Positions 3,598-56,140 of a stretch of DNA of 64,000 bases are shown piece after piece. Position numbers and translations under genes: made by a program. The notes beneath the pieces are model-generated. The model saw nothing but the letters and a program-made list of their open reading frames with translations. It ran no database searches and was not told the DNA's origin. Location: NCBI GenBank assembly GCA_033764315.1, contig JANRJA010000018.1, positions 17,496 through 81,495 of the forward strand. The letters are read 5' to 3'. The stretch is from Oculatellaceae cyanobacterium bins.114 (lineage in GTDB: Bacteria; Cyanobacteriota; Cyanobacteriia; Elainellales; Elainellaceae). How positions within the stretch are numbered: the stretch's first letter is position 1; every line of letters begins with the position of its first letter.

Positions 3598-3867
3598 GAG
3601 TAAGATTCTAAATAATGACTCAATGAAATAAAGGATAAGTTGTTGGGACAACGCTAATGCAGATTAGCGTAGGTTGATCGCCCACAAATGTAGCGAATGT
3701 AGCTTCATGAAAGGAGACTTTTTGCATGACTGAGTGGGCGTCTTGGCGGCACAACCATTGACACCCTTAAAACCACCTCACTCAAGCGATCGCGTGGAAT
3801 GAATGAAATAGATCCCCGAAATCAGAAGATTCCAGGGATCGGAGATTGCTATCAACCAGAATTGAGG

Positions 3868-5032: not shown

Positions 5033-5926
5033 ATGAAAGGTCAGTTGCAACGGAACGTGCCGGAGAATTTAGCGGGATATGGGTTTATGGCACCCACGCT
5101 AATCGTGTTGGGAACGTTTGTGGTGTTACCGATTCTCTATGCCGTTTTCCTGTCGTTTCAAAAGGTTCAACTTTTAGGGGAGATTGAGTATCAATTCATT
5201 GGTCTTAGCAACTTTGCTCGGTTAGTCGAAGACGATCGCGTCTGGATCGCTTTGCAAAACACGGTGGAATATGTGGCGATCGTGGTACCCACTCAAACCC
5301 TGTTGGCGTTGGGGTTAGCGGTGACCCTTAACTCTGGAATTCGTGGGAAAGGTTGGTGGCGAGTGATTTACTTTATGCCGACGGTCACATCATCGGCGGT
5401 GTTGACGTTAATTTTTATGTGGCTCTATAACACCAATGGTTTGCTCAACGATGCCCTGGCGTTTGTAGGATTGCCCACCTATAACTGGTTAGGAGATCCA
5501 GCGATCGCCCTCAAAGGCATCATGGTGATGAATATCTGGTCTACTGCGCCTTATTTCATGGTGATTTACTTAGCAGCCCTGCAAGACATTCCGCGATCGG
5601 TCTATGAAGCCGCCGAAATTGATGGAGCCAATGAGTGGCAACAGTTTTGGCACATCACCCTGCCCTTGCTCAAACCCGTGACGTTTTTTGTCATGACGAT
5701 GGGCGTCATTGGCACCTTTCAACTGTTTGATCAGTCCTACATTTTTTCTAATGGCACCGGAGGCCCGAATAACTCAACGCTGACGGTGGTGTTGCTGATT
5801 TATCAAGCGGTGTTTCGCAATTTGCAGTTGGGCTATGGAGCCGCGATCGCCTTTTTGTTGGCAGTGGTGATCATCATCGCCACGGTGTTACAACGTCGGT
5901 TCTTTCAGGAGGAAGAGCGTGGTTAA
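5033..5926 (+). CDS. carbohydrate ABC transporter permease
   Basis: YEAAEIDGA EAA motif; multiple TM segments. Confidence 0.93.
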   Translation: MKGQLQRNVPENLAGYGFMAPTLIVLGTFVVLPILYAVFLSFQKVQLLGEIEYQFIGLSNFARLVEDDRVWIALQNTVEYVAIVVPTQTLLALGLAVTLNSGIRGKGWWRVIYFMPTVTSSAVLTLIFMWLYNTNGLLNDALAFVGLPTYNWLGDPAIALKGIMVMNIWSTAPYFMVIYLAALQDIPRSVYEAAEIDGANEWQQFWHITLPLLKPVTFFVMTMGVIGTFQLFDQSYIFSNGTGGPNNSTLTVVLLIYQAVFRNLQLGYGAAIAFLLAVVIIIATVLQRRFFQEEERG

Positions 5927-42257: not shown

Positions 42258-43076
42258 ATGAAATATCGCGCGGCGATCGCCCTTATCCTGCTCAGTTTAA
42301 TGCCCGTCACAGCCCCTGTTTTGGCATATCCGACCTTGGCTCAATCCCTTCTAAAACAAACCCCTCCTCCGCCGCCTGATCGGGGTGCTCCGGGCGATCG
42401 CCTGCGAGGTGGAGCCGTCTGGTACACTCCCCCTGCACCCCCTGACCGAGGTATGCCAGAAGGACGCACGAGAGGCGGAGCCAGTCGGGGCAATTGCCCA
42501 CCCTCTGTTCAATCATTGACAGCCCTTGCCCCCTCTACCCCAGTCAATACCCCGGTCACTCGAAATTCAGTTTGGGGCTTAACCACCGTTGAGCATCCTA
42601 CCTTTTGGTTCTACGTTCCCTATGCAGCCACTCCTGACTTGCCTATGGAGTTTGTTTTGCTAGACGAACAAGACACCCTGATTTATCAGACTGATTTAAC
42701 CGTGACCAGCCCTGCGGGAGTGATTAACATTACCCTGCCCCCTACTGCGCCACCCCTAGAAGTCGGCAAAATGTATCGCTGGTATTTTCTGGTTTACTGT
42801 AGTCCCGAAAATCCCATCTTCACGCAAGGTGGCATTCAGCGCATGACTCCCACCCCAGAATTGGCGACTGCTTTACTGCAAGCTGACCCACGAGAGCAGG
42901 CAGCCCTCTATGCCTCTAATGGCGTCTGGTTTGATGCCCTCACCACAATGGCAAGACTACGACAGGCAGAACCCAACAATCCGGCGATCGCCACTGACTG
43001 GACAAGCCTACTGCAATCAGGGGGCTTAGAGGATGTCGCCCGACAACCTTTTGCCCCCTGTTGCACTCCTCACTAG
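42258..43076 (+). CDS. DUF928-family secreted protein
   Basis: Signal peptide, GGASRG, PTFWFYVPY, GVWFDALT. Confidence 0.85.
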   Translation: MKYRAAIALILLSLMPVTAPVLAYPTLAQSLLKQTPPPPPDRGAPGDRLRGGAVWYTPPAPPDRGMPEGRTRGGASRGNCPPSVQSLTALAPSTPVNTPVTRNSVWGLTTVEHPTFWFYVPYAATPDLPMEFVLLDEQDTLIYQTDLTVTSPAGVINITLPPTAPPLEVGKMYRWYFLVYCSPENPIFTQGGIQRMTPTPELATALLQADPREQAALYASNGVWFDALTTMARLRQAEPNNPAIATDWTSLLQSGGLEDVARQPFAPCCTPH

Positions 43077-43498
43077 GGCAGAGAGCAGGGACTCAACACA
43101 GCTACTAACCCGACATCTCGGCATCAGCATAGCCAGATGCAAGCAGAAGAGCAGCAATTGCCAGTTTGAAAATCGGTTTGTTAGACCTGAGACAGACTTG
43201 CGCAACCCCCGGTATGTTGAGAGAGTGGTAGACCGTGAACCCCACCTAAATCGTGAGCAGGTAAGCAGGGTGCTAGCCGCAAATCATCGGTGCTGCATAG
43301 CGCAAAGTTATCAATTGGCATCCAAGATAAAGTTGCTATGTATCTCCTTAGGAACCAGAAAATAGGCGGAAAGATTCTTGCTATTTAGCTTAAACGACAA
43401 TTATGCGGAAATAATCTATATAAGTAGTAGATTTGGGCGTTAGGCATGAATCATGCTGCCTATCTACCCCAAATTGGGATCTTAGGCAGAAAATTTCA

Positions 43499-43517
43499 GT
43501 CTAATAACTTGTTAGGC
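43499..43517 (+). other. candidate attI site (inverted box GTCTAAT, 5-bp spacer AACTT, core GTTAGGC)
   Basis: Same geometry as the integron attI simple site; GTTAGGCGCAA (43511-43521) is the exact reverse complement of TTGCGCCTAAC (44378-44388) at the first attC. Confidence 0.65.
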
Positions 43518-43644
43518 GCAATCATTGGAGAACTCTTTTAGAAGAGCGCAATTATTAACCCAGCAATCAAAGTCGTAAAGGAAGATTCAGTGCTTTAGGG
43601 GACTCCAAGCTAAAAAATGCTAGAACAACGGGTACCAATTTAAT

Positions 43645-44364
43645 ATGACAAATCCCAGCAAAGAATCTATTGCTGTCCAAATTTCGCCTTCAACTAAGAC
43701 GGTTGGATTCTGGTCTGCGGTACTTGCTACAGCGTTCAGCATCACATACATCGTGGGACAATTTGCCGAATGGTTGGGACTAATGGGGTCTCAAGGAGGT
43801 CCCGCGAGTGGTAGTACGCCTTTTGGGCTGGTGGTATTGCTAACACCGTCACTCTTCCTTGGTTCCTCGTTTCTCGTGCTTGTCGTGAGCATTCACCAAC
43901 TGACGCCTCCCGACAGAAGAATCTGGAGTCATGCTGCCGTTGTATTCGCTACCATTTACGCAGTCCTGATCAGCATTGTCTACTTTGTTCAGCTCACGCT
44001 CGTTGCACCTCGTGTTGCTCACGGGCAGATCGAAGGCATTGAGGCGTTTCTATTTGTGCCCTTCGATTCATTTCTGTATTCCGTGGATATTCTTGGGTAC
44101 AGCTTCATGAGTGTGGCTACCTTGTTTGCTGCACAGGTATTTACGGGTAGCGGGTTATATCGGGTTGTGCGGTTGTTTCTGATCACAAATGGGTTGTTAC
44201 TTCCCTTCATCGCGCTACAAATATATTTCCATTCGTTGATATGGGTTGCAGCACTTTGGGCAGTGACGTTTCCGGGATCAACGTGGACACTTGCTATCCT
44301 CTTTCGACGTACTGCAACTACAGGAACTATTCCTAACAGTTCGGTGGATGAGACTCAGGAGTAG
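43645..44364 (+). CDS. hypothetical multi-TM membrane protein (cassette 1)
   Basis: 239 aa hydrophobic ORF between the attI-like site and attC1. Confidence 0.75.
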   Translation: MTNPSKESIAVQISPSTKTVGFWSAVLATAFSITYIVGQFAEWLGLMGSQGGPASGSTPFGLVVLLTPSLFLGSSFLVLVVSIHQLTPPDRRIWSHAAVVFATIYAVLISIVYFVQLTLVAPRVAHGQIEGIEAFLFVPFDSFLYSVDILGYSFMSVATLFAAQVFTGSGLYRVVRLFLITNGLLLPFIALQIYFHSLIWVAALWAVTFPGSTWTLAILFRRTATTGTIPNSSVDETQE

Positions 44365-44381
44365 CAAAATAGTCGCCTTGC

Positions 44382-44468
44382 GCCTAACAACCGCGCTGCA
44401 CCGGAACGTTTCAGTATGGTCGGTTTGTTGCGAAGGTTGTTTGCGTCCGGTGAGCGCGACCGTTATGC
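44382..44468 (+). other. attC site 1
   Basis: GCCTAAC-AAC-CGCGCTGCACCGGAACG...CGTCCGGTGAGCGCG-ACC-GTTATGC; imperfect palindrome with extrahelical bases; 87 bp. Confidence 0.88.
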
Positions 44469-44618
44469 TGCCTCAAGTTATCTGTGGGAGCGCAAGCTGA
44501 AATCTCTCTGTGAGACACAGTGCCCAAGTAGCGATGAGTTTTTTGCTGAGACGCAATTGGGAGGTGATCGGTAAGCTACAATTCCTAATAGATTATTCTT
44601 TTCATCGCAGGTTGGGTA

Positions 44619-44909
44619 GTGCGAAAACAGGAAGTCCTGACATTACTGGTAAAGCACCAAAACACGCTGAAGGATTTTGGCGTAAAGTCTCTGATGCTGT
44701 TCGGCTCAGTGGCAAGAGATGAAGCGCGAACAGACAGCGATGTTGATCTGCTAGTAGAGTTTGATCGTCCGGTCGGGCTGTTTGCCTTTGTACGCTTGAA
44801 ACGATACCTGGAAGAGATTTTAGAGAGTTCAGTTGATCTGGGTACGCCCGACTCCCTCAAACCTTATTTACGAGAACCCATTTTTCGGGAGGCGATTCGT
44901 GCCTTCTAG
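44619..44909 (+). CDS. minimal nucleotidyltransferase antitoxin (MntA-like)
   Basis: FGSVARDEARTDSDVDLLVEF (GS-x10-DxD). Confidence 0.88.
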   Translation: MRKQEVLTLLVKHQNTLKDFGVKSLMLFGSVARDEARTDSDVDLLVEFDRPVGLFAFVRLKRYLEEILESSVDLGTPDSLKPYLREPIFREAIRAF

Positions 44910-45237
44910 AGATTGGCAAAATCGAGTAAGGGATGTACTAGCCGCGATCGCAGAAATCCGAGAGTTCACCAACGAAATAACCTTTGAGGAATTTCAGAGC
45001 GATCGCAAAACAATCAGAGCAGTTTTGTATAACTTTGCAATCATTGGTGAAGCAGTTCGTGGCATTCCGCCTGATGTAGAAGCGTTACATCCTGAAATTC
45101 CCTGGGACGATGTACGTGGAATGCGAAATATTGTGATTCACGAGTATTTTCAGGTGAATCTATCGATCATCTGGCAAACGATTCAAGAAGACATTGTTTT
45201 ATTAGAGATCTCGCTTCGTCAACTAATAAACCCTTAA
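44899..45237 (+). CDS. HEPN (DUF86) ribonuclease toxin (HepT-like)
   Basis: IIGEA and RNIVIHEY (Rx4HxY); GTG start overlaps the MNT gene. Confidence 0.88.
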   Translation: MPSRDWQNRVRDVLAAIAEIREFTNEITFEEFQSDRKTIRAVLYNFAIIGEAVRGIPPDVEALHPEIPWDDVRGMRNIVIHEYFQVNLSIIWQTIQEDIVLLEISLRQLINP

Positions 45238-45278
45238 GCCCGATTGATTACGCTGTTAACTTTAGTAGATGAGCTTAG

Positions 45279-45740
45279 ATGCAACAGTCAGAGGATGCGA
45301 ATACACCGAAACCATTGAGCCGAGTACAACGCTGGGAAATAGTACGAACTTTGCTACAACGTGAAAACTTGAGAATTGAGGCAAGAGAGGCATTTCGTCA
45401 GGCTTATCCCAATGCCCCAGAGGAGATGCTAACAACGGCTGTTTTTCATACTTGCGTTGATGGAATTGGAGCCGCAATAGATTGGCTAGTTGATTTAGAA
45501 CTATTTTTACGTGAACCGAGTCGAGAACTTGATATGGGTACCACATATTACCTGTTGTACCATCTTTACAATTGGTATCAGTTTCATGTATTGCTTCCAG
45601 ATGGAAGGACAGGCGTGTTAGAACGTCTTAAAGAAATTAGGGAGTTGATTGCAGATGGAGAGATAGAGGCAATTCTTGCAACAGTTGAGGAGTTAGAAGC
45701 GATGTTTGAAGGTGGTCGAAATAATCCTGATTTTCAGTAA
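45279..45740 (+). CDS. hypothetical protein (third gene of cassette 2)
   Basis: 153 aa ORF ending 6 bp before the ACATAAC box. Confidence 0.7.
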   Translation: MQQSEDANTPKPLSRVQRWEIVRTLLQRENLRIEAREAFRQAYPNAPEEMLTTAVFHTCVDGIGAAIDWLVDLELFLREPSRELDMGTTYYLLYHLYNWYQFHVLLPDGRTGVLERLKEIRELIADGEIEAILATVEELEAMFEGGRNNPDFQ

Positions 45741-45989
45741 GCAGCAACATAACATAGCCTCTGAGCCGGACGAGGTCAAGTAGATCTTGAAGAATTCTGT
45801 TCATTCTCATTGCTCATTACATACACAGACATGTTCATTTAACTGACTCTAAATATGGATTTACAGCATCTATTTTGGAGTCAGTTATTTTGTCTATTCG
45901 TGTTATATTTTTTGGTGCTTTAGCGTCTTTTTACTTTGAATGGGAGTTAGGTTGCTGTGCTCATTCTCTTGCTTTAAGGATTGGCAATG

Positions 45990-47231
45990 TCATAGAGCTA
46001 ATGGCTTAGCAATAGGAGATCCCTTGCGTTTTAAGGATGCAAGATATTTGGCTTCATCGTAGGCTTCCCGGTTCTTCCAACACCGAAACAAAATGCGAAT
46101 CCACTTGAACGCCAGTGACCGCATCGCCGCGGGATGGGATTTGCCCTTAGACCGTTGCATCTGGTAATAAGCTTGTGCCCAGCCACAATGATGACGGCTG
46201 TGATTGGCCCACTCCACAAAGGTCTGTCTCAAGAAGATCGGACAACTCCAACGCCAATGCACCCAGTTCTTTTTGCCGCTACTCTCTTTAACCGGCGCAA
46301 TACCGAAGTAGCACATCATCTGCTGGGCATTCTCAAAACGTGTCCTATCTTCTCCAAAAGCTGCCAGTAATCGCGGAGCCAGATGCTCTCCAGCCCCAGG
46401 TAGAGCCGCAAACCACGCCGCATCCGAAAAGCTGGTAAAGCACTGGTCAATTTTGAGCGTCAGTTCCACTAAGCTTGCCAACAGGGGCTTTAACTGACCG
46501 ATCAAGGTTTGCACTAACCATTGCATCGGCTCAACAATGCCTGGGTCTTCCGTTAAAGGAATACCGGACGCTGCAATCCGCTCAATCCGACGGGCGATTG
46601 CACTGCGACGAATGACACGATGCTGCTGAAAGAATTGGGTAAGTTCTTCTGAACTTGCCGCTTGAGCAGCTTTGAGAGTGGGATAGCGTTCAAGAAACTC
46701 ACAAAACACCTGGGTGTCCTTGTCCTCAAACCAATCAAGCACTTGAGGGTAATAGTTTTTGAGGGCCGAGGTAAGACGATTGGTCAACCGCACCTTCTCG
46801 CCCACTAGCATTCTCCTGGACTCAACCCACGGTCGCAGTGCTCGCATCTGAGCGCTTTCTGGACGCCAAACGGGTAATTTGTCTCCATGCTTTCGCAACA
46901 GTTCGACCAAAATCCGAGCATCAATCGGGTCTGACTTGGCACGAGATGGCTGAAAGGCTTTGCGGTAATTGGAAACAGTGCGGGGATTGATGGGAAAAAG
47001 CACCAGGTTTTCGTACTGGCAAAGCGCATAAACCAGTGGGCCACGTTTTTGCTCCAAGCATACGGCGAGCAAGGCAGTGCCATAGCGTTTTCGTAGTCCC
47101 TCGACCCAAGCAGCAATGGCATCAGGTTGTGATCCAATGACCAACTCTTCGGCTTCCCCTGTGGCGCAATCGTAAAGATAAATGTCATGTTTGCGGTCAG
47201 CCCAATCAATACCGATGTAAGCAGCGTACAC
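45990..47231 (-). CDS. IS110-family transposase (DEDD recombinase)
   Basis: YIGIDWADRKH, VCLEQ and KSDPIDA (DEDD); PGAGEHLA; GIAPVKESSGK. Confidence 0.95.
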   Translation of the reverse strand: MYAAYIGIDWADRKHDIYLYDCATGEAEELVIGSQPDAIAAWVEGLRKRYGTALLAVCLEQKRGPLVYALCQYENLVLFPINPRTVSNYRKAFQPSRAKSDPIDARILVELLRKHGDKLPVWRPESAQMRALRPWVESRRMLVGEKVRLTNRLTSALKNYYPQVLDWFEDKDTQVFCEFLERYPTLKAAQAASSEELTQFFQQHRVIRRSAIARRIERIAASGIPLTEDPGIVEPMQWLVQTLIGQLKPLLASLVELTLKIDQCFTSFSDAAWFAALPGAGEHLAPRLLAAFGEDRTRFENAQQMMCYFGIAPVKESSGKKNWVHWRWSCPIFLRQTFVEWANHSRHHCGWAQAYYQMQRSKGKSHPAAMRSLAFKWIRILFRCWKNREAYDEAKYLASLKRKGSPIAKPLAL

Positions 47232-47276
47232 GTCCTAATTCATAATGTTATTCTCGAATTACAGTTGGTGATGCAA

Positions 47277-47468
47277 CTGGGACGGCTTCTGCTCAAGGCG
47301 ATAAAGATTATGGAAGGTGTTGCCGCACCGACCTCTGAGGATTCGTTGGAGAGAGAAGCACAGGGTGGGGCGAGGCGATATGTTAGTAGACATCGAATGT
47401 CATCAAGTGCATGGTCGTCTCCTACCCTGCGTCCCAGTGATGAAGCTGAGTTTATATCCTCTGCTTCA
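47277..47468 (-). ncRNA. candidate IS110 bridge RNA
   Basis: Predicted 5' hairpin (47441-47468) and two stem-loops closed by the 47277-47284/47430-47437 stem; the internal loops match the attC target and the element ends. Confidence 0.65.
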
Positions 47469-47484
47469 GTCCTGTCCTCCCATA

Positions 47485-47565
47485 AATTCAAATGCAGCGG
47501 ACGGTTGACAGCCGCTGGTACTGAGTTTTAGGCTAACTGCCGCCGCTGCATTTGAGTCGTTATGC
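47485..47565 (+). other. attC site 2 (right part; R'' box at 45747-45753 separated by the IS)
   Basis: TCAAATGCAGCGG...CCGCTGCATTTGA-GTC-GTTATGC. Confidence 0.8.
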
Positions 47566-47669
47566 ATATATTCAACCTTAAAAGAGTCAAGCTGGGAGCG
47601 ATCGCCCAGGTTGATTTGGTCAGCTTAACTCCCTACCGTTATGCATATGTTCAACATTAGAAGAGTCAA
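47558..47669 (+). repeat. 33-bp direct repeat of a cassette 5' leader (47558-47590 and 47637-47669)
   Basis: CGTTATGCATATATTCAACCTTAAAAGAGTCAA vs CGTTATGCATATGTTCAACATTAGAAGAGTCAA; 3 mismatches. Confidence 0.85.
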
Positions 47670-47674
47670 AGGTT

Positions 47675-48319
47675 ATGACAGAACAAGTTAATACTCAAAT
47701 TCCTATTTCTCCCCACTTCTTTTGTGATGGTATGGGATACGTATTGACCTCATCGAGTCTGGGTGGAAGTAATCTGACTCCTGATCAAATTTCTAGCATT
47801 GTTTTGGATGGTTCTGCTGACGATATGACTCCCCTTTTGACTCAGGGGATCTGTATGCCTGTTCTCTTTGATGGCGATTGTGCTTTAGATCGCAGTACAC
47901 TTTTCGTCCTTGGCGACTTAACGCCAGAGCAAGAGCGGGATTGGAGAGCGCGGTTAACCTGGAAATTACGAATTCCTTGTGGAAAATTAATCTTGTTATG
48001 CAGTTGTATAGCAGAAGATCTTGCTCATGCCATTTCTGGAAAACCCCCAACAAAACACTTTGAAATTTTTCAGGTAGTAGATATTCCTCCTGATTCGTAC
48101 TTGGTTGAGATCTATGCTTATTCATCCAGCTTGACGGTCATCATGACACTGGATGACGAAGAATATGAAGAGTTTGAGAAAACTATGCCCGAAAAAGATT
48201 ATGACAAGGAAGGAAACTTAACTTTAGTGAATTACATCATTCGTCTATCATCTCTCAAAAGTGAACCCAACATGCCCCAACATAGTGGTTCCTGGTTTGA
48301 TACTTTTACTTTCCGCTAA
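47675..48319 (+). CDS. hypothetical protein (cassette gene)
   Basis: 214 aa, AT-rich, same orientation as the array. Confidence 0.7.
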   Translation: MTEQVNTQIPISPHFFCDGMGYVLTSSSLGGSNLTPDQISSIVLDGSADDMTPLLTQGICMPVLFDGDCALDRSTLFVLGDLTPEQERDWRARLTWKLRIPCGKLILLCSCIAEDLAHAISGKPPTKHFEIFQVVDIPPDSYLVEIYAYSSSLTVIMTLDDEEYEEFEKTMPEKDYDKEGNLTLVNYIIRLSSLKSEPNMPQHSGSWFDTFTFR

Positions 48320-48328
48320 ACATAATTT

Positions 48329-48904
48329 ATGCAAGTTATTGAGCACACCGAAGTAAAGTTAGTCCTTACACTTGATGAGAATCAGATATTACATAATGCA
48401 ATCTTGATGGCAAGCGTATTTATATTTGCTGGAATGTTGATGTTTGGTGCAGATTTTAGATCAAATCCTAACTATGAACTCATTTCCGCACAAAATCTAA
48501 ATTTTGTCATTAAAATAATGGGAGGTATTTCAATACTAATTGGTTTGTTTTCCGTCTGGGCTGGAATAAATAATCGAGACAATACCTATATCTTTGATAA
48601 AGAGAACTCTATATTTAGAGTTACAGGAAAGAATTTGTTAGGTTCCTATACAAAAGACTATTCTATCTCTGCTATTAAGGACGTAACGCTACATGTTACA
48701 TCTACTCAGCCCATAGACCTTCCTGACAACAATTTTTATGGATCTTTAGTTCCTACACCTGATAAGTTCAATATTTCTCTTGAGCTAGAAGGTGAAGCAT
48801 TTTCAGAAAAAGTTTTTTTACATTACCAAGACTCGAATTTTCAATTAATGAGTAGTCTTGTAAATACAATTAGAGATTTTCTTGAGATGACGGATGACAA
48901 ATGA
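48329..48904 (+). CDS. hypothetical two-TM membrane protein (cassette gene)
   Basis: 191 aa, very AT-rich, two hydrophobic segments. Confidence 0.7.
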   Translation: MQVIEHTEVKLVLTLDENQILHNAILMASVFIFAGMLMFGADFRSNPNYELISAQNLNFVIKIMGGISILIGLFSVWAGINNRDNTYIFDKENSIFRVTGKNLLGSYTKDYSISAIKDVTLHVTSTQPIDLPDNNFYGSLVPTPDKFNISLELEGEAFSEKVFLHYQDSNFQLMSSLVNTIRDFLEMTDDK

Positions 48905-48977
48905 CAGCAAACGAACGCATTGTAGGCTATCTACATCATCTGAGATTGGCAACGGTATGTCAGTTCGATCGTTATGT
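48899..48977 (+). other. degenerate attC site 3
   Basis: Ends GTTCG-ATC-GTTATGT with partial left arm CGAAC; R'' box decayed. Confidence 0.5.
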
Positions 48978-49056
48978 TTACCACGCTGCTATTTTTGTAC
49001 AAGTGAATCTACAAAATGAAATGTGATGCTGTGTGCCAGTTGGGGAATCCATATCA

Positions 49057-49587
49057 ATGCAAACAAGGGAAATAATAAAACCAGGTAGGATCGCTGCTCT
49101 ACTGCTCTTCTTAATATTTGGAGGTTTCTGGTCACCTATACTCTTTCAATCCATTCCTCGTATATTTTATCCTGACACTTTGACTATAAGTTGCCATAAG
49201 GTGTCTGCAATTACTAATTGTGAAATAGTTCGGCAGTACGGTTCTGGGGAAAGATTGGTTAAATCATACTTAAATGTAATAGGAGTAGAGCCACCATCAA
49301 GTCAGCCTCAAGGAAAGACACTTGTTCCAGTATTTTTAGTAACCAGAAGTGGCAATGAGCTTCTGTTTCCTCTGGAAGACCCTGTAGTTAGTATGTATAA
49401 AAAAACTGAAATAAAGTATGAGATTGGGCAGTTTCTAAATAACAGTGAAACCCTATTAATAATCACCTTAAATAACCGTGCCGATGCAGCTTTTACATTT
49501 GTGTTTCTAGGGATCTTGCTTTTCCCTTGTTGCTTTTATGTAGTGAGAGACTTATGCAATTTATTAAAGGAATTCAAAGTTTTGTAG
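49057..49587 (+). CDS. hypothetical membrane protein (cassette gene)
   Basis: N- and C-terminal TM segments; AT-rich; start at 49033 or 49057. Confidence 0.65.
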   Translation: MQTREIIKPGRIAALLLFLIFGGFWSPILFQSIPRIFYPDTLTISCHKVSAITNCEIVRQYGSGERLVKSYLNVIGVEPPSSQPQGKTLVPVFLVTRSGNELLFPLEDPVVSMYKKTEIKYEIGQFLNNSETLLIITLNNRADAAFTFVFLGILLFPCCFYVVRDLCNLLKEFKVL

Positions 49588-49613
49588 ATTTATAAGAAAA
49601 CCCTGAGCTTGAT

Positions 49614-49702
49614 GTATAACAAGTTGCTGCACCGGAACGGAGCCATAATTTATCTGTCGAGTTCCAAAAGCTACTGCCGTCCGGTGAGCTTGGTCGTTAG
49701 CC
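49614..49702 (+). other. attC site 4
   Basis: GTATAAC-AAGTT-GCTGCACCGGAACGG...CCGTCCGGTGAGC-TTGGTC-GTTAGCC; arms nearly identical to attC1. Confidence 0.88.
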
Positions 49703-49867
49703 CTTAAGTCCCTGGTAGTGATGTAGCTTGGATTTTGGGGGAACCGATGGGATTGGCAGTGTGGGGCGACAGCTCTAAGCGGATCGATTTGCAGGCAACG
49801 GCACTCAGCACAATGCGTTTGATGGCACAACAGAAGCTAAAGGAGAAAGCGATCGCCCGCTCACCCT

Positions 49868-50416
49868 TTACTCCGGGTGCAGCAAAGCCTCTGGCAATTG
49901 ATGCAGAATGCGCTCAAAGATGGCTGTGTTGTTGAGTCCACGGGTCAATACCAGTCCGCCTTGAATCAGCGCGATCGCCTCTTCAGCCCTTTGACGGGCA
50001 GTCATCGGTGTGATGCCAGCCTCTACTAACACGTCCGCCACACTATCAATCCAGAGGTTGAGTGCTTGTTGCACGCGCTCCTGAAATAATTCATGGGCCT
50101 CTCCGACGCTGAGGAGTGCTAATAAACAATCCTGCTGACCCTGTTGGTAAAAGGCATCGACATTTTGGTTCATCGCCTGGAGGCGATCGCGGGGTGAGCG
50201 ATCGCTGCGTAAGGGTGCTAACAAATTTTCCTTTAACGCCTGGGTCACGTACTCCAGAACAGCATCAGCCATTTCTTCCTTGCCATTCGGGAAATAGTGA
50301 TAGAGACTGGCTCGCTTCAGCCCAGTTGCCTCAGAAAATCGGGTGATGCTAGCCCCTTCGTAGCCATATTCCTGAAATACCGCCATCAACTGGGGGATGA
50401 CTTCTGCTCTAGCCAT
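49868..50416 (-). CDS. TetR/AcrR-family transcriptional regulator
   Basis: GYEGASITRFSEATGLKRASLYHYFPNGKEE HTH; likely ATG at 50416. Confidence 0.92.
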   Translation of the reverse strand: MARAEVIPQLMAVFQEYGYEGASITRFSEATGLKRASLYHYFPNGKEEMADAVLEYVTQALKENLLAPLRSDRSPRDRLQAMNQNVDAFYQQGQQDCLLALLSVGEAHELFQERVQQALNLWIDSVADVLVEAGITPMTARQRAEEAIALIQGGLVLTRGLNNTAIFERILHQLPEALLHPE

Positions 50417-50448
50417 GAGTGCCCTCAAAAAAGGTTTTGCGTTCCTAC

Positions 50449-50500
50449 TTGACAGCATACCAAACGTTCGGTAGTTTAAGAATATACCGAACGTTTGGTA
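50449..50500 (+). promoter_or_regulatory. sigma70-type promoter with two TetR-like palindromic operators
   Basis: TTGACA (50449)-17 bp-TAGTTT (50472); operators TACCAAACGTTCGGTA (50458-50473) and its exact reverse complement TACCGAACGTTTGGTA (50485-50500). Confidence 0.75.
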
Positions 50501-50685
50501 AAGAAGGCGGGGCGATATAACCTACAAGGAGCAAATTGATGAAACCTCCATTTAAAGAGCGCTTGGCGGTGATTGCAGGAGCAGCAGACTGTATCACGGG
50601 TCAGCCTTCTTGAACCAGAACTGCCCGCCACTGAATGGCAAATTCTATGCAAAACACACGTGTACAAAACACAAGGAGTAATATC

Positions 50686-51543
50686 ATGACGACCTACAAC
50701 ACTATTTCGATCGATGGCTTGAATATTTTCTATCGGGAGGCCGGTTCAAAGGACAATCCGACCATTGTTCTCCTGCATGGCTATCCAGCATCGTCTCACA
50801 TGTATCGAGATTTGATTAACCAGCTATCCGATCAGTTTCACTTGATTGCACCCGATTATCCTGGGTTTGGCAACAGCGATACACCACCAATCGATCAATT
50901 TGAATACAGCTTTGATCATCTCGCTGATATTACCGAGCATTTCTTGCAAGCTCTGGAATTAAATCGCTTCAGTCTGTATGTGCAAGATTACGGCGCGCCC
51001 GTTGGGTTTCGGATTGCCAGCCGCCATCCCAAATGGATTCAATCGCTGATTGTGCAGAATGGGAATGCCTATGAGGAAGGGTTGACTCCGGCTTGGCAAG
51101 CTTTCCGTAATTTGTGGAGCGATCGCAGCGAAGCGACCGAAGCACCTGTACGCGATTTTCTCAAGCGCGATACGACGATTTTCTTTTACACAGCCGGGGT
51201 GCGCGATCGCCAAAACATCAATCCCGACAATTGGAATCTTGACCAATCCTTCCTGGATCGCCCAGAGAACGCGGCGGCTCAATTGGAACTGTTCTACAAC
51301 TACCGGGCGAACCTGGAGCAGTATCCCCAGTGGCATGAGTACTTCCGCACCCACCAGCCGCCGACGCTCATTGTCTGGGGTAAGAACGACCCGTTCTTTG
51401 GTCTAGAGGGAGCCAATGCATTCCAACGAGATCTGAAAACGATTGAGGTGCATCTGCTCGATACGGGGCATTTTGTCCTGGATGAAGAAGGTGAGGCGAT
51501 CGCCGCCCACATCCGTCGCTTTCTTCCGGCTCACTTGGGTTAG
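50686..51543 (+). CDS. alpha/beta hydrolase (epoxide hydrolase/dehalogenase-like)
   Basis: LLHGYP, PDYPGFG, QDYG nucleophile motif, TGHF; AAGGAG RBS. Confidence 0.9.
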   Translation: MTTYNTISIDGLNIFYREAGSKDNPTIVLLHGYPASSHMYRDLINQLSDQFHLIAPDYPGFGNSDTPPIDQFEYSFDHLADITEHFLQALELNRFSLYVQDYGAPVGFRIASRHPKWIQSLIVQNGNAYEEGLTPAWQAFRNLWSDRSEATEAPVRDFLKRDTTIFFYTAGVRDRQNINPDNWNLDQSFLDRPENAAAQLELFYNYRANLEQYPQWHEYFRTHQPPTLIVWGKNDPFFGLEGANAFQRDLKTIEVHLLDTGHFVLDEEGEAIAAHIRRFLPAHLG

Positions 51544-51646
51544 TCGATCAACCCTTAGCAACTGGCTGGATCGATCTAATGGCTACAACGCTGGTTGCCA
51601 AGGTTACAGTTTCGGCGATCGATTCAACTCCTCAGAGGACACAACC

Positions 51647-51937
51647 ATGTCAGTTTATTTTGTCGTTTCGCTCAACATTACCGATGCTGATCGATTTATG
51701 CAGTATTTTCAGGCAGTCCTGCCGCTGATCAAACAACGCGGCGGGCGATTAATTGCTCAGGGAACGCCCGAAACGATCGAAGGCAACACGACAGGCTCGC
51801 AATCGGCTGTGTTTGAGTGGTCTTCCCGTCAAGCCTTTCTCGACTACTGGCACTCAAAAGAGTACGCCGAGATCAGAAAACTGCGTGAAGGTGCCGTAGA
51901 GTTTCAGGGAATCATTGTCGAAGGAGTGGTCGGATGA
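51647..51937 (+). CDS. DUF1330-family protein
   Basis: GGRLIA, IEG, EW.S, YWHSKEYAEIRKLR; GAGGA RBS. Confidence 0.8.
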   Translation: MSVYFVVSLNITDADRFMQYFQAVLPLIKQRGGRLIAQGTPETIEGNTTGSQSAVFEWSSRQAFLDYWHSKEYAEIRKLREGAVEFQGIIVEGVVG

Positions 51938-52575
51938 AACTCATCTCCGTTTGTGTTGGCTTGCCACGCGAAGTCAACTGGAAGGGCAAACCTGTCACAA
52001 CTGGTATTTTTAAGCAGCCTGTACAGGGGCGAGTGATGATGCGATCGCTAAATCTAGAGGGCGATCAACAAGCGGATCTAACCGTTCACGGGGGTGTCGA
52101 GAAAGCCATTTACGCTTATCCGATGGAGCATTACACTTACTGGCGGCAGGAACTACCGGATGAAGCACTCCCCTGGGGTGCATTTGGTGAAAATCTGACC
52201 GTAGAAGGCTTATTGGAAACAACTGTGAACATTGGCGATCGCTTTCGCATCGGCAATGCCGAAGTGATGGTAACGCAGCCCCGGTTTCCTTGCTTCAAAC
52301 TCAATCTCAAGTTTGGCCGCGACGATATGGTCAAACGGTTCCTGAACAGTCGTTTGAGCGGCATTTATTTCTCAGTGTCGCAAGAAGGTGAAATTGGAGC
52401 AGGTGATGCGATCGAACTCATAGAGCGCGACGAACACAATATTACAGTTGCTGACATTGTGCGAATCTACGTGCGTGAAGCGAATGATGATTTGGTCCGT
52501 CGTGCCATTCAAGTACCCGCTTTGGCAGCCGAGTTGAAGACTTACTTTCAGCAGCAAATTGAACAACGCCATTAA
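51934..52575 (+). CDS. MOSC-domain protein (YiiM-like)
   Basis: VHGGVEKAIY, FGENLT, TQPRFPCFKL. Confidence 0.9.
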   Translation: MKLISVCVGLPREVNWKGKPVTTGIFKQPVQGRVMMRSLNLEGDQQADLTVHGGVEKAIYAYPMEHYTYWRQELPDEALPWGAFGENLTVEGLLETTVNIGDRFRIGNAEVMVTQPRFPCFKLNLKFGRDDMVKRFLNSRLSGIYFSVSQEGEIGAGDAIELIERDEHNITVADIVRIYVREANDDLVRRAIQVPALAAELKTYFQQQIEQRH

Positions 52576-52669
52576 GCTAGACTTTTGGCATGAGGATTGA
52601 GGCTCTAATGGATCACGATGACCGCGATAGCACGATCCAATGTAGACTAGCCAATCGACGTTCTAAACG

Positions 52670-52756
52670 GTCTAACAACCGTGTTGCGGCGGAACAACCA
52701 ATTTTCTTCGTTGGGCTGCAAAGGTTGCCTACGTCCGCTGAACACGACTGTTATGC
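52670..52756 (+). other. attC site 5
   Basis: GTCTAAC-AAC-CGTGTTGCGGCGGAAC...GTCCGCTGAACACG-ACT-GTTATGC. Confidence 0.85.
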
Positions 52757-52802
52757 ATCTAACCCAGCACCTTTCTGCGCCACTTCAATTAATAGGTAGA
52801 AG

Positions 52803-53285
52803 ATGTCATCCTCCGAGCCAATTAGCATTCGTCAGCTTTCCGCCAACGACCTAACACTTATGGAGGGTTTATTGGCTACCTTCGGTGAGGCTTTCAACGA
52901 AGTTGATACCTATAGCTCGTCTCGCCCAAGCAATGCCTATCTCAAACAGTTGCTAAACAGCGATTATTTCATTGCGCTTGCAGCGTTAAAAAATGGATCA
53001 GTAATTGGAGGTATCGCCGCTTACGAACTCCAGAAGTTTGAGCAGGAGCGTAGTGAAATTTATATTTACGATTTGGCTGTTGCAGCAGCGCATCGACGTG
53101 AAGGAATTGCCACCGCCTTAATCCGAGAATTAAAGAAGATCGCTGTAGCGCGAGCAGCTTATGTTATTTTCGTGCAGGCGGACATTGGGGATGACCCTGC
53201 GATTGCACTCTATACGAAGCTTGGGACACGCGAAGATGTGCTTCACTTCGATATTCCTGTTCCGGTTGGTGATGAAGATGCATAA
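52803..53285 (+). CDS. aac(3)-I: AAC(3)-I family aminoglycoside 3-N-acetyltransferase
   Basis: FIALAA, FEQERSEIYIYDLAV...HRREGIATALI and VIFVQADIGDDPAIALYTKLG..EDVLHFDI closely match the AAC(3)-Ia sequence as I recall it; the stop codon lies in the attC R'' box. Confidence 0.88.
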   Translation: MSSSEPISIRQLSANDLTLMEGLLATFGEAFNEVDTYSSSRPSNAYLKQLLNSDYFIALAALKNGSVIGGIAAYELQKFEQERSEIYIYDLAVAAAHRREGIATALIRELKKIAVARAAYVIFVQADIGDDPAIALYTKLGTREDVLHFDIPVPVGDEDA

Positions 53286-53365
53286 CAACCGCGATGCACC
53301 AAAACTTTGGATTATAGTAGCTAGTATCCTGAGTTATCTAAGTCCGGCGATCGCGACCGTTATGC
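53280..53365 (+). other. attC site 6
   Basis: GCATAAC-AAC-CGCGATGCACC...CCGGCGATCGCG-ACC-GTTATGC; AGATGCATAAC is the reverse complement of the cassette start GTTATGCATCT. Confidence 0.85.
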
Positions 53366-53402
53366 ATCTAAATCCATAGTCTAAAAATTAGATCTTTGAT
53401 TC

Positions 53403-54188
53403 ATGCGTGTTTTATATCCTGAAAATCCATTAAATAAAACACAAGCAGATGAGCCGTATCACGAAGAGTTCACTTTCGTGTGCAGTGCTGGGTGTAATCA
53501 ATGTTCACTTTTTGATTTTGATGCATTGGAATTTAATGAATTCAATCCACATCCAAAAATCCAGACTGGTGAGCGAGTACTTTATCGTGGCTGGATGCTC
53601 AACTCGCAAAAATATAAAACCTTAATCACGCAAATCGAACACAAAGGTGGTGTACCAATAACTTCCCATGATGACTACCTTCGATGTCATCATCTACCAG
53701 GTTGGTATCAACAATGCTCAAATTTCACAGCAGAGACATATTTTTTTGCAGTTGACGAAGAGTTAGAAGCAAAAGTAGAAGAACTTGGATGGGATCGCTA
53801 TTTTGTAAAGGACTTTGTGAAGTCCAACACAGCTAAACTAGGTTCAGTTGCAAATTCACCATTCGAAGTCCGCAGTATTATTGAGCAGATTGCTACTTAT
53901 CGAGGTGAAATTGAGGGTGGCATTGCAATACGACGTTGTGAAAACTATCGCTCCAGTACAGAACGTCGATACTTTATAGTTAATGGTACACCTTACTCAT
54001 CTGATGGCGCAGTTCCTGAGATGGTACAAGCAATAGCCAGCATCATTAATGCACCGTTTTACTCTGTCGATGTGGTAGAAAACTCAGAAGGGAAACTGCG
54101 GCTTGTTGAGTTGGGAGATGGGCAGGTGTCAGATAAAAAGGATTGGTCAGTATCCAAATTGGTGGAGGTTATTGCAGCAAATGCATAA
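53403..54188 (+). CDS. ATP-grasp domain protein (DUF4343-like)
   Basis: LYRGWML, FVKDFVKS, FYSVDV, VELGDGQVSD; stop lies in the R'' box. Confidence 0.75.
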   Translation: MRVLYPENPLNKTQADEPYHEEFTFVCSAGCNQCSLFDFDALEFNEFNPHPKIQTGERVLYRGWMLNSQKYKTLITQIEHKGGVPITSHDDYLRCHHLPGWYQQCSNFTAETYFFAVDEELEAKVEELGWDRYFVKDFVKSNTAKLGSVANSPFEVRSIIEQIATYRGEIEGGIAIRRCENYRSSTERRYFIVNGTPYSSDGAVPEMVQAIASIINAPFYSVDVVENSEGKLRLVELGDGQVSDKKDWSVSKLVEVIAANA

Positions 54189-54271
54189 CAATCCGCTTGC
54201 ACACCGACCGTATTAAGTTAGTTTGTTGAGAACAAAAGGTTACTGGCAACCTCTGACCGCGACCATTAGAC
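54183..54271 (+). other. terminal degenerate attC site 7
   Basis: GCATAAC-AAT-CCGCTTGCAC...TGACCGCG-ACC-ATTAGAC (G of the GTT core changed to A). Confidence 0.65.
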
Positions 54272-54331
54272 GGGCTTCAACTCACATATGCCATCCACCC
54301 ATCTACCCACCCTCTCCTGATCCCATCATTC

Positions 54332-56140
54332 TTACCCAACTGTGGTCTGCATTGACGGATTGACGATCATATTGCCCTGTTTTAGGTAATTCAGCACTCG
54401 CTGGCGACCCTCTAACGCCGTTTCAAAGTCGTGTTTGAGTTGCACCGCCTTATCATAGGCGGCGAGGGCTGCCTCATAGCGTTCCAAAATCTCCAACACG
54501 CGACCCCGATCGTGCCATGCCCAATAATTCTCAGGCTGAATCTGCACGACTTTAGTATAAGAACTCAGGGCGTCTTTATATTGGTGCAACTGCTCCAACA
54601 CACTACCTCGCTTAAACCAGGCCAGGTGATCGTCGGGCTGGAGCTGCACGACCTGATCATAAGAAGCCGCCGCTTCCTCATAGTGTTGCAGGTTCTCCAA
54701 CGCCATCCCTCGCATCAACCACGCCAGTGCATCTTCTGGATTTTCTTGAATAGCGCGATCGCACGACATGACCGCTTCGTCATAGTGTTGCAAGCTATAG
54801 AGCTGATCGACCTGTTGAAGTTGACTCAAAACCCGCTTGCGACTTTGAATCGCCAACTGAAATCCAGACTTCAGTTGCACCGCTCGATTATAGGCCGCGA
54901 CCGCTTCCTCTAACCGCTCTGAGGCTTCTAACACGCGACCGCGATCGTGCCATGCCCAATAGTTATCGGGTTGAATCTCAATCACTCGGTCATAACAGGC
55001 GATCGCTTCCTCATACCGATGTACGTTTTCCAGTGCCTTGCCCCGCTTAAACCAGGCCAGATAATCATCTGACTGAATCTGAATGACGCGATCATAGGAC
55101 GCGATCGCCTCATCATATTCCTGTAAGTTTTCTAACGCGATCCCCCGTTTAAACCAGATCAAATAGTCGTCTGGCATCGCCTGGATCACTTTGTCGTAAC
55201 ACGCCACGGCTTCTCGATAACGTTGCAGTTGAAACAACTCATCGCCTCGCTCAAACCATGCCAGGTGCCCATCTAAGCTGACAGCCCGAACCGTTGGCAT
55301 GATCACGGTGCTGTGATTGGGCCCTAACACTGTAGCGATCGCTTTTAATGCCTCTAAAGCCGATTGATAGCGTTGACGGAAGTCATAACGCACCATGCCA
55401 TCCAACAGATCAGCAAACTCTGGGCTGACCTCTGTATGTTCGCGCCAGTGAATCTCACCAGTCCGGGGGTCTTCTGGCAATTGCGCTGGATATAACCCCG
55501 TCAAGGCCCGAATGCCCACCATGCCAACCGCATAGATATCGCTGCTAAATCGGGGTTTGCCTGCCATCTGCTCGTTGGGCATATATCCCGATGAGCCGAT
55601 CGCGATCGTGATGCTGGTTTGAGTTTGGTCATCAGTCGCCACCCCAATCTGCTTAACAGCTCCAAAGTCAATCAAGACAATCTTTTGATCGCTTTTCCGC
55701 CGAATCAAATTAGAGGGTTTGATGTCCCGGTGAATCACCTGCTGCTGGTGCACAAACTCCAGCGTGGTCAAAATATCATGCAAGATTAGCAAGACTTGCT
55801 CTTCATTAAACCGTTTTCCTCGTTTAAACAAACGGCTTAATACATCGCCTTCAACAAATTCTTGAACCAGATAAAACTCTTGATTTTCCTCAAAGTGAGC
55901 AAACAAACGAGGAATTTGATCGTGACTGCCTAGGGTGTAAAGCACTTCGGCTTCGCGATCAAACAAACGTCGGGCGGCTTGCAATGAACCTGCTTCAGTT
56001 ACTTTTGGCTTGAGCTGTTTGACAACACACTGAGGCTTTCCAGGCAAATGCCAATCCTCAGCCAGATAGGTTTGCCCAAATCCGCCTCCCCCTAGATATC
56101 GAATAATCTGGTAACGTCCGCCGATTATTTTTCCCAGCAT
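54332..56140 (-). CDS. Ser/Thr protein kinase with TPR repeats
   Basis: LGGGGFG, HRDIKPSN, DFG; C-terminal AWxxRG...YEEAxxxYD TPR array. Confidence 0.94.
   Translation of the reverse strand: MLGKIIGGRYQIIRYLGGGGFGQTYLAEDWHLPGKPQCVVKQLKPKVTEAGSLQAARRLFDREAEVLYTLGSHDQIPRLFAHFEENQEFYLVQEFVEGDVLSRLFKRGKRFNEEQVLLILHDILTTLEFVHQQQVIHRDIKPSNLIRRKSDQKIVLIDFGAVKQIGVATDDQTQTSITIAIGSSGYMPNEQMAGKPRFSSDIYAVGMVGIRALTGLYPAQLPEDPRTGEIHWREHTEVSPEFADLLDGMVRYDFRQRYQSALEALKAIATVLGPNHSTVIMPTVRAVSLDGHLAWFERGDELFQLQRYREAVACYDKVIQAMPDDYLIWFKRGIALENLQEYDEAIASYDRVIQIQSDDYLAWFKRGKALENVHRYEEAIACYDRVIEIQPDNYWAWHDRGRVLEASERLEEAVAAYNRAVQLKSGFQLAIQSRKRVLSQLQQVDQLYSLQHYDEAVMSCDRAIQENPEDALAWLMRGMALENLQHYEEAAASYDQVVQLQPDDHLAWFKRGSVLEQLHQYKDALSSYTKVVQIQPENYWAWHDRGRVLEILERYEAALAAYDKAVQLKHDFETALEGRQRVLNYLKQGNMIVNPSMQTTVG

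Follow-up and report, generated by a model that had tools for sequence, protein, structure and literature searches.

An IS110-type insertion sequence in a cyanobacterial integron attC site, with relatives at the same position and candidate RNA guides upstream of the transposase gene

An IS110-family element divides an attC site

The 64-kb stretch of DNA considered here (contig JANRJA010000018.1 of Oculatellaceae cyanobacterium bins.114; hereafter the window, to which coordinates refer) contains an insertion sequence (IS) of the IS110 family lodged in an attC, the recombination site of integron gene cassettes. The element measures ~1730 bp (1.73 kb) and occupies ~45754-47485 on the minus strand, its ends being drawn from comparison of copies, from a table of junctions across the family and from intact homologous attCs. 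To its left in the window stands the R'' box of the split site, ACATAAC (45747-45753, plus strand), which is untouched by the insertion and placed after the stop of a cassette open reading frame (ORF), as in the window's other attCs; between that ORF (45279-45740, TAA stop) and the box lies gcagca. The remainder of the site follows the element on the plus strand (47486-47565), and comprises a spacer, the L'' arm TCAAATGCAGCGG (47488-47500), a variable loop, the L' arm CCGCTGCATTTGA (47543-47555), a gtc spacer and the R' box GTTATGC (47559-47565), reading AATTCAAATGCAGCGG ... CCGCTGCATTTGA gtc GTTATGC to 47565. These boxes fit RYYYAAC/GTTRRRY, with ACATAAC ... GTTATGC disposed around an imperfect palindrome of 13-bp arms, in which L'' has one extra base, continuing GACGG as against CGG in L'. 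The only ORF between the two attC parts is that of the transposase (45990-47231, minus strand; 413 amino acids from a GTG start, 93% identical to the protein P0001), which matches the Pfam domains PF01548 (DEDD_Tnp_IS110, 9e-27) and PF02371 (Transposase_20, 5e-16) and the NCBIfam model NF033542, 'IS110 family RNA-guided transposase' (164.5 bits, cutoff 140), and so belongs to the IS110 family. Homologues number in the thousands; the top ones are cyanobacterial, 64-93% identical and 417 amino acids long, and start MNQD-VYAAY. A first-pass annotation, made from the letters alone, had placed an IS110 element within an attC at this position, and the transposase domains, the R'' box to the left with the remaining palindrome to the right, and a match to an attC hidden Markov model (HMM; see below) bear this out.

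The junctions were defined largely by comparison. Left and right ends are named hereafter in transposase orientation, in which the element reads (T)TATGGGAGG...GAGGCTA(T), and each end is uncertain by 1-2 nucleotides (nt) because the crossover falls in a run of T. The left junction in the window is ...catttgaat-TTATGGGAGG and the right ...GGCTCAGAGGCTATGTT-atgttgc, compared with flank-TTATGGGG... and ...CTCAGGG(A/C)CTATGTT-flank, respectively, across the family. Copies of relatives within the same genome are 98.7-99.9% identical across 1.8-1.9 kb and diverge beyond, and one contig of 1736 bp (L001), whose protein is 94% identical to the window transposase, covers exactly the element unit. As intact homologous attCs read arm-NTT-GTTRRRY, the occupied site amounts to an intact site plus the element; one such intact site (L048; CCGCCTGCATTTGA-ATT-GTTATGC, or ...CATTTGA-ATT-GTTATGC) is 85% identical over 79 nt to the split attC. 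The left junction retains everything through T(T) and the right retains T-GTTRRRY, such that one T only is demonstrably shared. Read from these junctions, the crossover is the T(T) between spacer and R-box, and the insertion is site-specific, with a 1-nt (T) overlap but no multi-base target duplication or terminal inverted repeats, as is characteristic of the IS110 family.

This placement revises two details of the first-pass annotation. The tetranucleotide CATA is indeed present at both junctions (45753-45756 and 47481-47484), but the family comparison and the intact homologous attCs indicate that it is not a target duplication. The empty site had also been credited with a spacer about 3 nt longer than those of the other attCs, an excess that arose from reading CATA as a duplication: with the crossover in T(T), the rebuilt site is ACATAAC-AAT(or AAAT)-TCAAATG..., and its spacer is therefore 3-4 nt rather than 6, where the other attCs have 3 nt. 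Two other crossovers were considered and rejected. Taking the TT of the R-box (TATG-TT-RRRY) as a core dinucleotide, with the IS reading ATGG...CTATG, needs a 2-3-nt deletion relative to intact homologous attCs, and a TT core within the spacer is ruled out by the AT found there at the right junction.

Relatives occupy the same position in attC sites

A genome scan with a transposase alignment (A1) as query yielded 80 loci, mostly from Leptolyngbya-like and related filamentous cyanobacteria. Among these, 56 were eligible for a test of attC adjacency, in that they retained the transposase N-terminus and at least 560 nt upstream; seven of the 56 are more distant (45-49% identity, other phyla). 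The attC HMM was trained on the flanking DNA of 34 related copies of the IS, all from other genomes and leaving the window out, and it matches the IS-adjacent site in the window (47488-47564) at E=8.1e-9. Since the model derives from the flanks of other genomes, the attC at the element is more than a chance association. Four further window sites are matched in the same orientation (44390-44467, 49626-49701, 52680-52755 and 54193-54270) and one, at 53280-53366, is missed. In all, the HMM made 96 matches at E<=1e-3, five in the window and 91 in the loci, and 84 of the latter share the orientation of the transposase. Of the 56 loci, 41 have a match directly against the left end; 33 of these are training sequences, and eight come from the 23 non-training loci. 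The 15 misses include all seven distant non-cyanobacterial loci; degenerate boxes are visible by eye in L003, L023, L042 and L059, and truly different flanks occur in L044, L074, L031 and L027.

A simpler positional test points the same way. The left junction was recognisable, with 130 nt or more of flank, in 58 loci, and 35 of these (60%) have TAAC at a distance of 70-82 nt upstream of that junction, compared with 90 of 2320 random control positions drawn from the same loci (3.9%). On the other side, the right flank continues after GTT with AG or AT, as an R-box would, in 31 of the 35 loci for which a right flank was listed; the GTT itself is not independent evidence because it formed part of the search pattern, but the copy comparisons are independent of it. 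A criterion based on duplex energy flagged only 15 of 58 loci; it copes poorly with imperfect arms, and the TAAC test and the HMM were used instead. Most homologues thus abut attCs; insertion of other copies in unrelated sequences, which the first-pass annotation had named as refuting it, is not the general pattern. That a single IS of some other preference fell into an attC by chance might be argued from the one copy in the window, yet the same context recurs in 41 of 56 related loci, and the positional TAAC signal exceeds that of controls to the degree given above; we regard this explanation as barely credible.

One relative links these sites directly to an integron. At locus L036, an ORF 1.7 kb beyond the right end encodes an integron integrase (TIGR02249, 465 bits, cutoff 265), and the order in array orientation is intI (leftward), a GTTAGAC attI core, an ORF region, an R'' box GTCTAAC, the IS and the rest of the attC. 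The transposase points towards intI, in the same geometry as in the window, and the integron is complete, with the element in the attC of the first cassette. Since relatives hold the same position and orientation in many genomes, the lineage appears to target integron attCs, a habit which seems not to have been described before: a limited literature search found no published description of an IS110-type element aimed at attC.

Several features of these loci are recorded as observations in their own right. L036 also holds a footprint (L036:2362-2445), in which the left 63 attC positions run directly into the final 20 nt of a right end of window type (TCGTCCGGCTCAGAGGCTAT) and GTTAGCTGG; a full IS of another subtype and the integron integrase are found at the same locus. 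ORFs flanking relatives in environmental cyanobacteria encode an Arr-type rifampin ADP-ribosyltransferase domain and APH-family phosphotransferases (L010:2732-3490, L005:6640-7602, L066:7988-9172). The copy in L074 adjoins ..ttccgcctcagaggcga (L074:3630-3662), which resembles a right-end terminus, and may be an insertion beside an older remnant or in a donor-like site. Relatives in Myxococcota (L070, 3000-3136; L065; L073), at 46-49% identity, also begin TTATGGG, and in L070 at least an attC-like palindrome (GCCCAAC..GTTCAGCAGCGAAC...GTTCGTCTGCTGCAAC), not detected by the cyanobacterial HMM, abuts the left end.

The surrounding cassette array

The element lies in a co-oriented array on the plus strand (44382-54270) with six attC sites including the split one, the others being at 44382-44468, 49614-49702, 52670-52756, 53280-53366 and 54183-54270 (all plus strand). 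Each has the form RYYYAAC, 3 nt, arm ... arm, 3 nt, GTTRRRY, and is preceded by plus-strand ORFs, whose products include a nucleotidyltransferase/HEPN pair (HEPN/MNT), a GNAT acetyltransferase and an ATP-grasp protein. The dense occurrence of GCGATCGC repeats, like the relatives recovered, fits a cyanobacterial host. No integrase gene (Phage_integrase) was found among the 56 window ORFs scanned with Pfam. An array with no integrase is what we take to be a CALIN (cluster of attC sites lacking integron-integrases). The absence of an integrase would also suit a different view, namely that the repeats are a cyanobacterial palindromic family and the element targets them in the manner of ISPpu9, ISPpu10 and ISPa11, which insert at repetitive extragenic palindromic (REP) sequences. 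The repeats are unusually alike across genera, and their identity as attCs is drawn here from boxes, arms and array context rather than from a curated attC model. Against this, the boxes fit RYYYAAC...GTTRRRY in complementary pairs with 3-nt spacers, all the sites share one orientation and stand behind an ORF of their own strand, the contents are typical of cassettes (those named above, with Arr and APH in relatives), and at L036 the repeat and IS lie beside a TIGR02249 integron integrase with a matching GTTAGAC attI core. We accordingly judge a REP-type origin of the repeats improbable. A detector of attCs that combined a regular expression with an arm score was dropped, as it returned 13 raw matches (7 distinct sites, both strands) in the window and 1-8 in shuffled windows.

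Other features of the array deserve brief mention. Just to the right of the split attC is a direct repeat of 33 nt (47558-47590 and 47637-47669; 91% identical, 79-bp spacing), which consists of R' GTTATGCATAT and the leader of the next cassette; between its copies lie a GCGATCGC palindrome and a GCTTAAC..GTTATGC mini-site. The repeat resembles the start of a cassette in duplicate, or else an empty remnant of one. Further upstream, non-coding DNA before the first cassette ORF (43645) contains GTTAGGC twice and CTTAGGC once (43439-43445, 43481-43487, 43511-43517), which may mark an old array start or an attI-like remnant with no integrase gene nearby. Lastly, the interval 49702-52670 is devoid of attCs and holds four genes, encoding a TetR regulator (minus strand), an alpha/beta hydrolase, a DUF1330 protein and a MOSC protein (plus strand); it amounts to an unusually large 'cassette' or to fused cassettes.

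Candidate target and donor loops upstream of the transposase gene

Between the left end of the element and the start codon, alignment of 65 modules and their covariation delineate a putative target-binding loop (47361-47429, minus strand). Its outer stem pairs 47421-47429 with 47361-47369, and within it a constant ACGACCA is followed by a variable guide UGCACUUGAU (47402-47411), a hairpin GACAUUCGAUGUC (47389-47401) and a constant UACUAACAUAUCG (47376-47388), complementary to the donor TA, then T, then the R-box GTTAG. Nearly all cyanobacterial relatives carry this module, in the order outer stem, ACGAC(C/T)A, ten variable nt beginning T(G/C)CA, hairpin (GACA-loop-TGTC or GTCA-loop-TGAC), TACTAACATATCG and outer stem. 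Across the 65 distinct modules, columns on either side of the guide vary little or not at all, and no base holds a majority at the last six guide positions, leaving the variable segment as the only unconserved stretch of an otherwise near-invariant module. The stems covary: columns 16 and 71 form GC in 43 modules, AU in 18 and CG in two; columns 17 and 70 form AU in 28 and GC in 27; and columns 37 and 49 form AU in 36, UA in 27 and GC in two. Stem cells pair in 83.9% of cases, as against 40.6-58.3% when partners are slid by 1-3 columns, and the covariation score was reached by none of 500 shuffles.

The variable ten-nucleotide segment reads in the sense of the left flank and is located 5' of CUAACA, the complement of TGTTAG. 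Guides match the flanks of their own loci at a mean of 6.45 of 8 positions, compared with 5.59 +/- 0.14 for permuted pairings, none of which (0/5000) scored as high. Matches of at least 7/8 occur in 21 of 40 loci, compared with 22% under permutation, and a 10-nt version of the comparison gives 6.6 versus 5.92. In the window itself, the guide UGCACUUG matches its own flank TGCATTTG at 7/8. The constant CUAACAUA is the complement of TA-T-GTTAG, that is, of the last bases of the donor, the shared T and the R-box. Under the scheme of target guide, core and handshake given for IS621 (PMC11208160, PMC11208158), CUAACAUA would combine the right target guide with a core-binding base and a handshake guide. 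An instructive case is that of Leptothermofonsia sp. ETS-13, in which one copy (L044) occupies non-attC sequence (..cggTACAGTGAT-TT..; 3640-3670 and 5460-5490, with GTT on the right) that matches the first guide of the element, TGCAGTGA, at 7/8, while three sister copies in the same genome are attC insertions fitting the second guide at 6/8.

A putative donor-binding loop follows at 47297-47347 (minus strand). It comprises AACGAAUC-CUCAGAGG, identical to CTCAGAGG of the right end, a GGUG..CACC hairpin and UUCCAUAA, the complement of the TTATGG with which the left end starts. The corresponding module in relatives is AACGAAU-CUCAG(A/G)GG, a hairpin of variable sequence and UUCCAUAAUC, in which CCAUAA complements TTATGG. 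Loop and right end change together: window-type elements have CTCAGAGG in both and other relatives CTCAGGGA in both, and, likewise, CUCAGAGG in the loop and right end of the former is replaced by CUCAGGGA in both places in the latter. Pairing in the inner hairpin is kept despite changes of sequence (GGTG/CACC, GTG/CAC, GAGT/ACTC, GATGA/TCATC). Two internal loops with strands matching target and donor ends, as would be expected of a bridge RNA or seekRNA, are therefore predicted, with matches that are discontiguous with the crossover.

A number of observations weigh against this interpretation. The guide matches at no more than 6/8 in 19 of the 40 loci, and background matching is high because guides and attC arms share a TGCA/TCCA start. 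Between the match and the crossover, 2-4 nt of the target and 4-5 nt of the donor stay unpaired, whereas pairing in IS621 is contiguous. The one-T crossover is itself ambiguous, as L013 fits an element starting ATGG, and the window copy, L036, L045 and L062 fit TATGG. Independent covariation events are few because many of the changes separate two paralogous types of module. Folded as a single sequence, the upstream region is unremarkable (z = -0.81; 43 of 200 shuffles fold as well), so that support for its structure rests on covariation, and the downstream region folds better (z = -2.12). An Rfam search of 43000-55000 gave no match at E<=1. Nor does the window copy show the expected asymmetry in length, its left-end non-coding region of ~250 nt being hardly longer than the 236 nt at the right end; most relatives have ~340-450 nt on the left versus 205-300 nt on the right. 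The 236-nt downstream region is conserved, outside the closest relatives, only in its last ~30 nt. Of the earlier proposal that a structured non-coding region precedes the gene, the conserved guide-bearing modules and covarying stems between left end and start codon therefore stand, and the single-sequence fold lends it no help.

The moderate agreement between guide and flank invites another explanation, in which the transposase recognises the folded attC hairpin by its structure, like IntI or through a stem-loop gate such as that of ISPpu10, with little part played by the upstream RNA in the choice of site. The hairpin is always situated in full on the left-end side, and always in one orientation (84 of 91 HMM matches), and a preprint reports that specificity in an IS110 element depends on a stem-loop encoded by the target, 5' of the insertion site (10.64898/2026.03.19.712850). 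However, guides covary with their own flanks beyond permuted pairings (0/5000), the variable segment is the sole unconserved stretch of its module, and the L044 copy in non-attC sequence matches one of its guides at 7/8. Recognition by structure in place of a guide thus strikes us as rather doubtful, and hairpin recognition and RNA guidance need not exclude each other. Overall, we consider it probable that the element represents a cyanobacterial IS110-type lineage guided by a bridge RNA or seekRNA, the natural target of which is the cassette-proximal (R'') end of attC.

Most relatives, at 63-73% protein identity, differ from the window copy in having two paralogous target loops upstream of a single donor loop. 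The modules are arranged in tandem, the first with a GACA..TGTC and the second with a GTCA..TGAC hairpin; their guides differ, and CUAACAUA is common to both. They lie in the left ends of the following loci, ~20-240 nt from the junction: L004, L010, L013-L015, L017-L021, L023, L024, L026, L033, L038-L042, L044, L045, L049, L050, L054, L055, L059, L062, L066, L067, L069, L072, L074 and L080. Across 32 two-module loci, the occupied site is better matched by the first module in 15 and by the second in 11, with six ties. Tentatively, such an arrangement might constitute a natural two-address bridge RNA, by which one element could enter two classes of attC, or attC and non-attC sites, as a retargetable parasite of integrons; our limited search of the literature found no published account of double target loops. 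Pairing between the second loop and the far arm, or the far R-box, of the same attC was considered but discarded, as it fitted L024 by eye (8/10) but not L015 or L050.

The window copy has itself probably been impaired, judging from an early stop codon and one broken stem pair in the target loop. Relatives start four codons upstream of the GTG of the window ORF (MNQD...), where the window reads ATG AAT TAG GAC GTG (ATG AAT TAG at 47243-47235). Codon 3, which encodes Gln or Glu in relatives, is thus TAG (47237-47235), for which reason translation could start only at the GTG two codons on; the remaining ORF is intact. At 47423 the window has A in place of the G of relatives, which breaks one pair of the outer stem. 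At the other end of the element, the right-end terminus (45751-45779, minus strand), which carries CTCAGAGG, includes a promoter-like TTGACC-17-TATGTT reading out of the right end. It is the sole such site in 45600-47700, for a chance expectation of 2.4, and is not significant alone; TTGAC(C/T)-17-TATGTT recurs at the right ends of relatives. The downstream region also contains two plus-strand hairpins (45841-45886 and 45914-45927), both with a T-rich run behind them; the first corresponds to the long stem of the downstream-region fold and the second was flagged as terminator-like. As predicted structures, they would stop antisense read-through from the cassettes into the transposase gene.

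Proposed mechanism and significance

By analogy with IS621 and ISEc21, a mechanism can be proposed. The IS sits between the R'' box and the 3-nt spacer, with its transposase antisense to the cassettes and the whole attC hairpin on its left-end side. Excision would produce a circle that joins the right end to the left end, and the right-end promoter (TTGACC-17-TAT...) might then drive both bridge RNA and transposase because of that junction. In the target loop, the constant 3' segment CUAAC-A would pair with the top strand T-GTTAG of the R-box, and the UA after CUAAC-A would serve as handshake guide for the ...TA of the donor; the donor loop would pair with both ends of the element, at CTCAGAGG on the right and TTATGG on the left; and strands would be exchanged at the T(T) immediately 5' of GTT. 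On this model the R-box would provide the fixed half of the address and the variable arm the programmable half. With R'' held 1.7 kb away from the remainder of its attC, the site should be unable to fold for IntI, and the insertion would then be expected to block excision of the cassette.

Two unrelated kinds of element, the IS1111-attC group and the group IIC-attC introns, are already known to target attC. A third, IS110-type lineage at the same end and strand would strengthen the case for a preferred landing spot, and would extend attC targeting to the chromosomal integrons of cyanobacteria. For the study of bridge RNAs, the family may offer a natural design whose address is half fixed, on a conserved box, and half free to follow a variable hairpin arm, with left guides that are non-contiguous and, in relatives, a pair of target loops on a single RNA. 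Within integrons, elements of this kind may freeze or reshape cassette arrays, as the L036 footprint suggests. Double target loops combined with a fixed R-box guide would, if true, describe an RNA-guided and retargetable parasite of integrons.

Comparison with known systems

The closest named IS among the matches listed is ISEsa2, with 42% protein identity over the full length, followed by actinobacterial IS110/IS116-like proteins at 25-29% identity over >90% of the length. Solved structures are matched weakly, in the RuvC part (IS621, E=1.3e-7; ISCro4, 3.2e-6). BLASTP is equally weak to ISEc21 (IS110-type) and to IS4321 (IS1111-type), at 26.9 bits each, a result which tells against a confident assignment; because both similarities are marginal, placement in the IS110 type rests on architecture and length and not on a tree. 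The architecture is that of the IS110 group, in that the guide-encoding non-coding region lies upstream of the transposase gene and the match to the bottom strand lies 5' of the match to the top strand in the RNA. This order and location have been described for IS110, and the reverse for IS1111 (PMC11187229, PMC11208160).

That the element is a misread member of the IS1111-attC group (ISPa21, ISPst6, ISKpn4), its gene layout having been mistaken, has to be considered, as those elements share its target class and its geometry, being reported to enter attC near the 5' end and to lie antisense to the cassettes (PMC3001079), and as the downstream region here is long (236 nt) and folds somewhat better than shuffles. 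The transposase, however, has 413-417 amino acids, against the 330-350 given for IS1111 (PMC11187229), the conserved guide modules are upstream, with the downstream region conserved only in its last ~30 nt beyond close relatives, and the strand matches follow the IS110 order. BLASTP to IS4321 gives E=7e-4 over 78 amino acids, and among the 60 listed of 1096 plasmid matches, none is labelled IS4321/IS5075, those named being ISEsa2, IS116, ISBth166 and ISBth13. We find this alternative highly improbable; length, guide location and match order set the lineage apart from published descriptions of the IS1111-attC group, in agreement with the separate lineage posited by the first-pass annotation.

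The likeness to that group (ISPa21, ISPst6, ISKpn4, ISPa25) nonetheless extends to a DEDD transposase, RNA guidance, the targeting of one end of attC, and insertion near the attC 5' end, antisense to the cassettes, as is also found here (PMC11187229, PMC3001079). The group has its guide downstream, the top-strand match first, long subterminal inverted repeats and hosts in Proteobacteria, whereas the present family has its guide upstream, a transposase of 413-417 rather than 330-350 amino acids, the bottom-strand match first and hosts in Cyanobacteria. The footprint in L036 (2362-2445) may be likened to footprints of the IS1111-attC group. Members of that group reportedly leave degenerate footprints in arrays (Tetu and Holmes, 2008).

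Group IIC-attC introns, too, enter attC on its bottom strand, close to the 5' end, and lie antisense to the cassettes (PMC3001079). They differ in being retroelements with a wholly different mechanism, and their outward promoter can drive the next cassette, whereas the promoter-like site described here points the opposite way, into the antisense of the upstream cassette. ISPpu10, ISPpu9 and ISPa11 (IS110 or IS1111) resemble the present element in having a repeated palindromic target with a stem-loop 5' of the insertion point (10.64898/2026.03.19.712850; PMC12288879), but their targets are REP or intergenic repeats and not integron recombination sites. ISEsa2, from enterobacterial plasmids, shares an upstream non-coding region with the AACGAAT-CTCAGGG motif of the donor loop (AACGAATACTCAGGG) and a right end containing CTCAGGGC; it differs in having a short right end, and the single locus inspected showed no attC.

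IS621 and ISEc21 also have an upstream RNA with target and donor internal loops, a right-end promoter and no target duplication (PMC11208160, PMC11208158 and PMC11187229), and in their loops, as here, the left guide is on the 5' side and the right guide and handshake bases are on the 3' side. The transposase is distant from theirs, the left guides of the present family are separated from the crossover by unpaired bases, and 1 nt is demonstrably shared at the crossover, in place of the CT dinucleotide. The target, moreover, is a structured recombination site present in multiple copies, and most relatives carry two target-loop modules.

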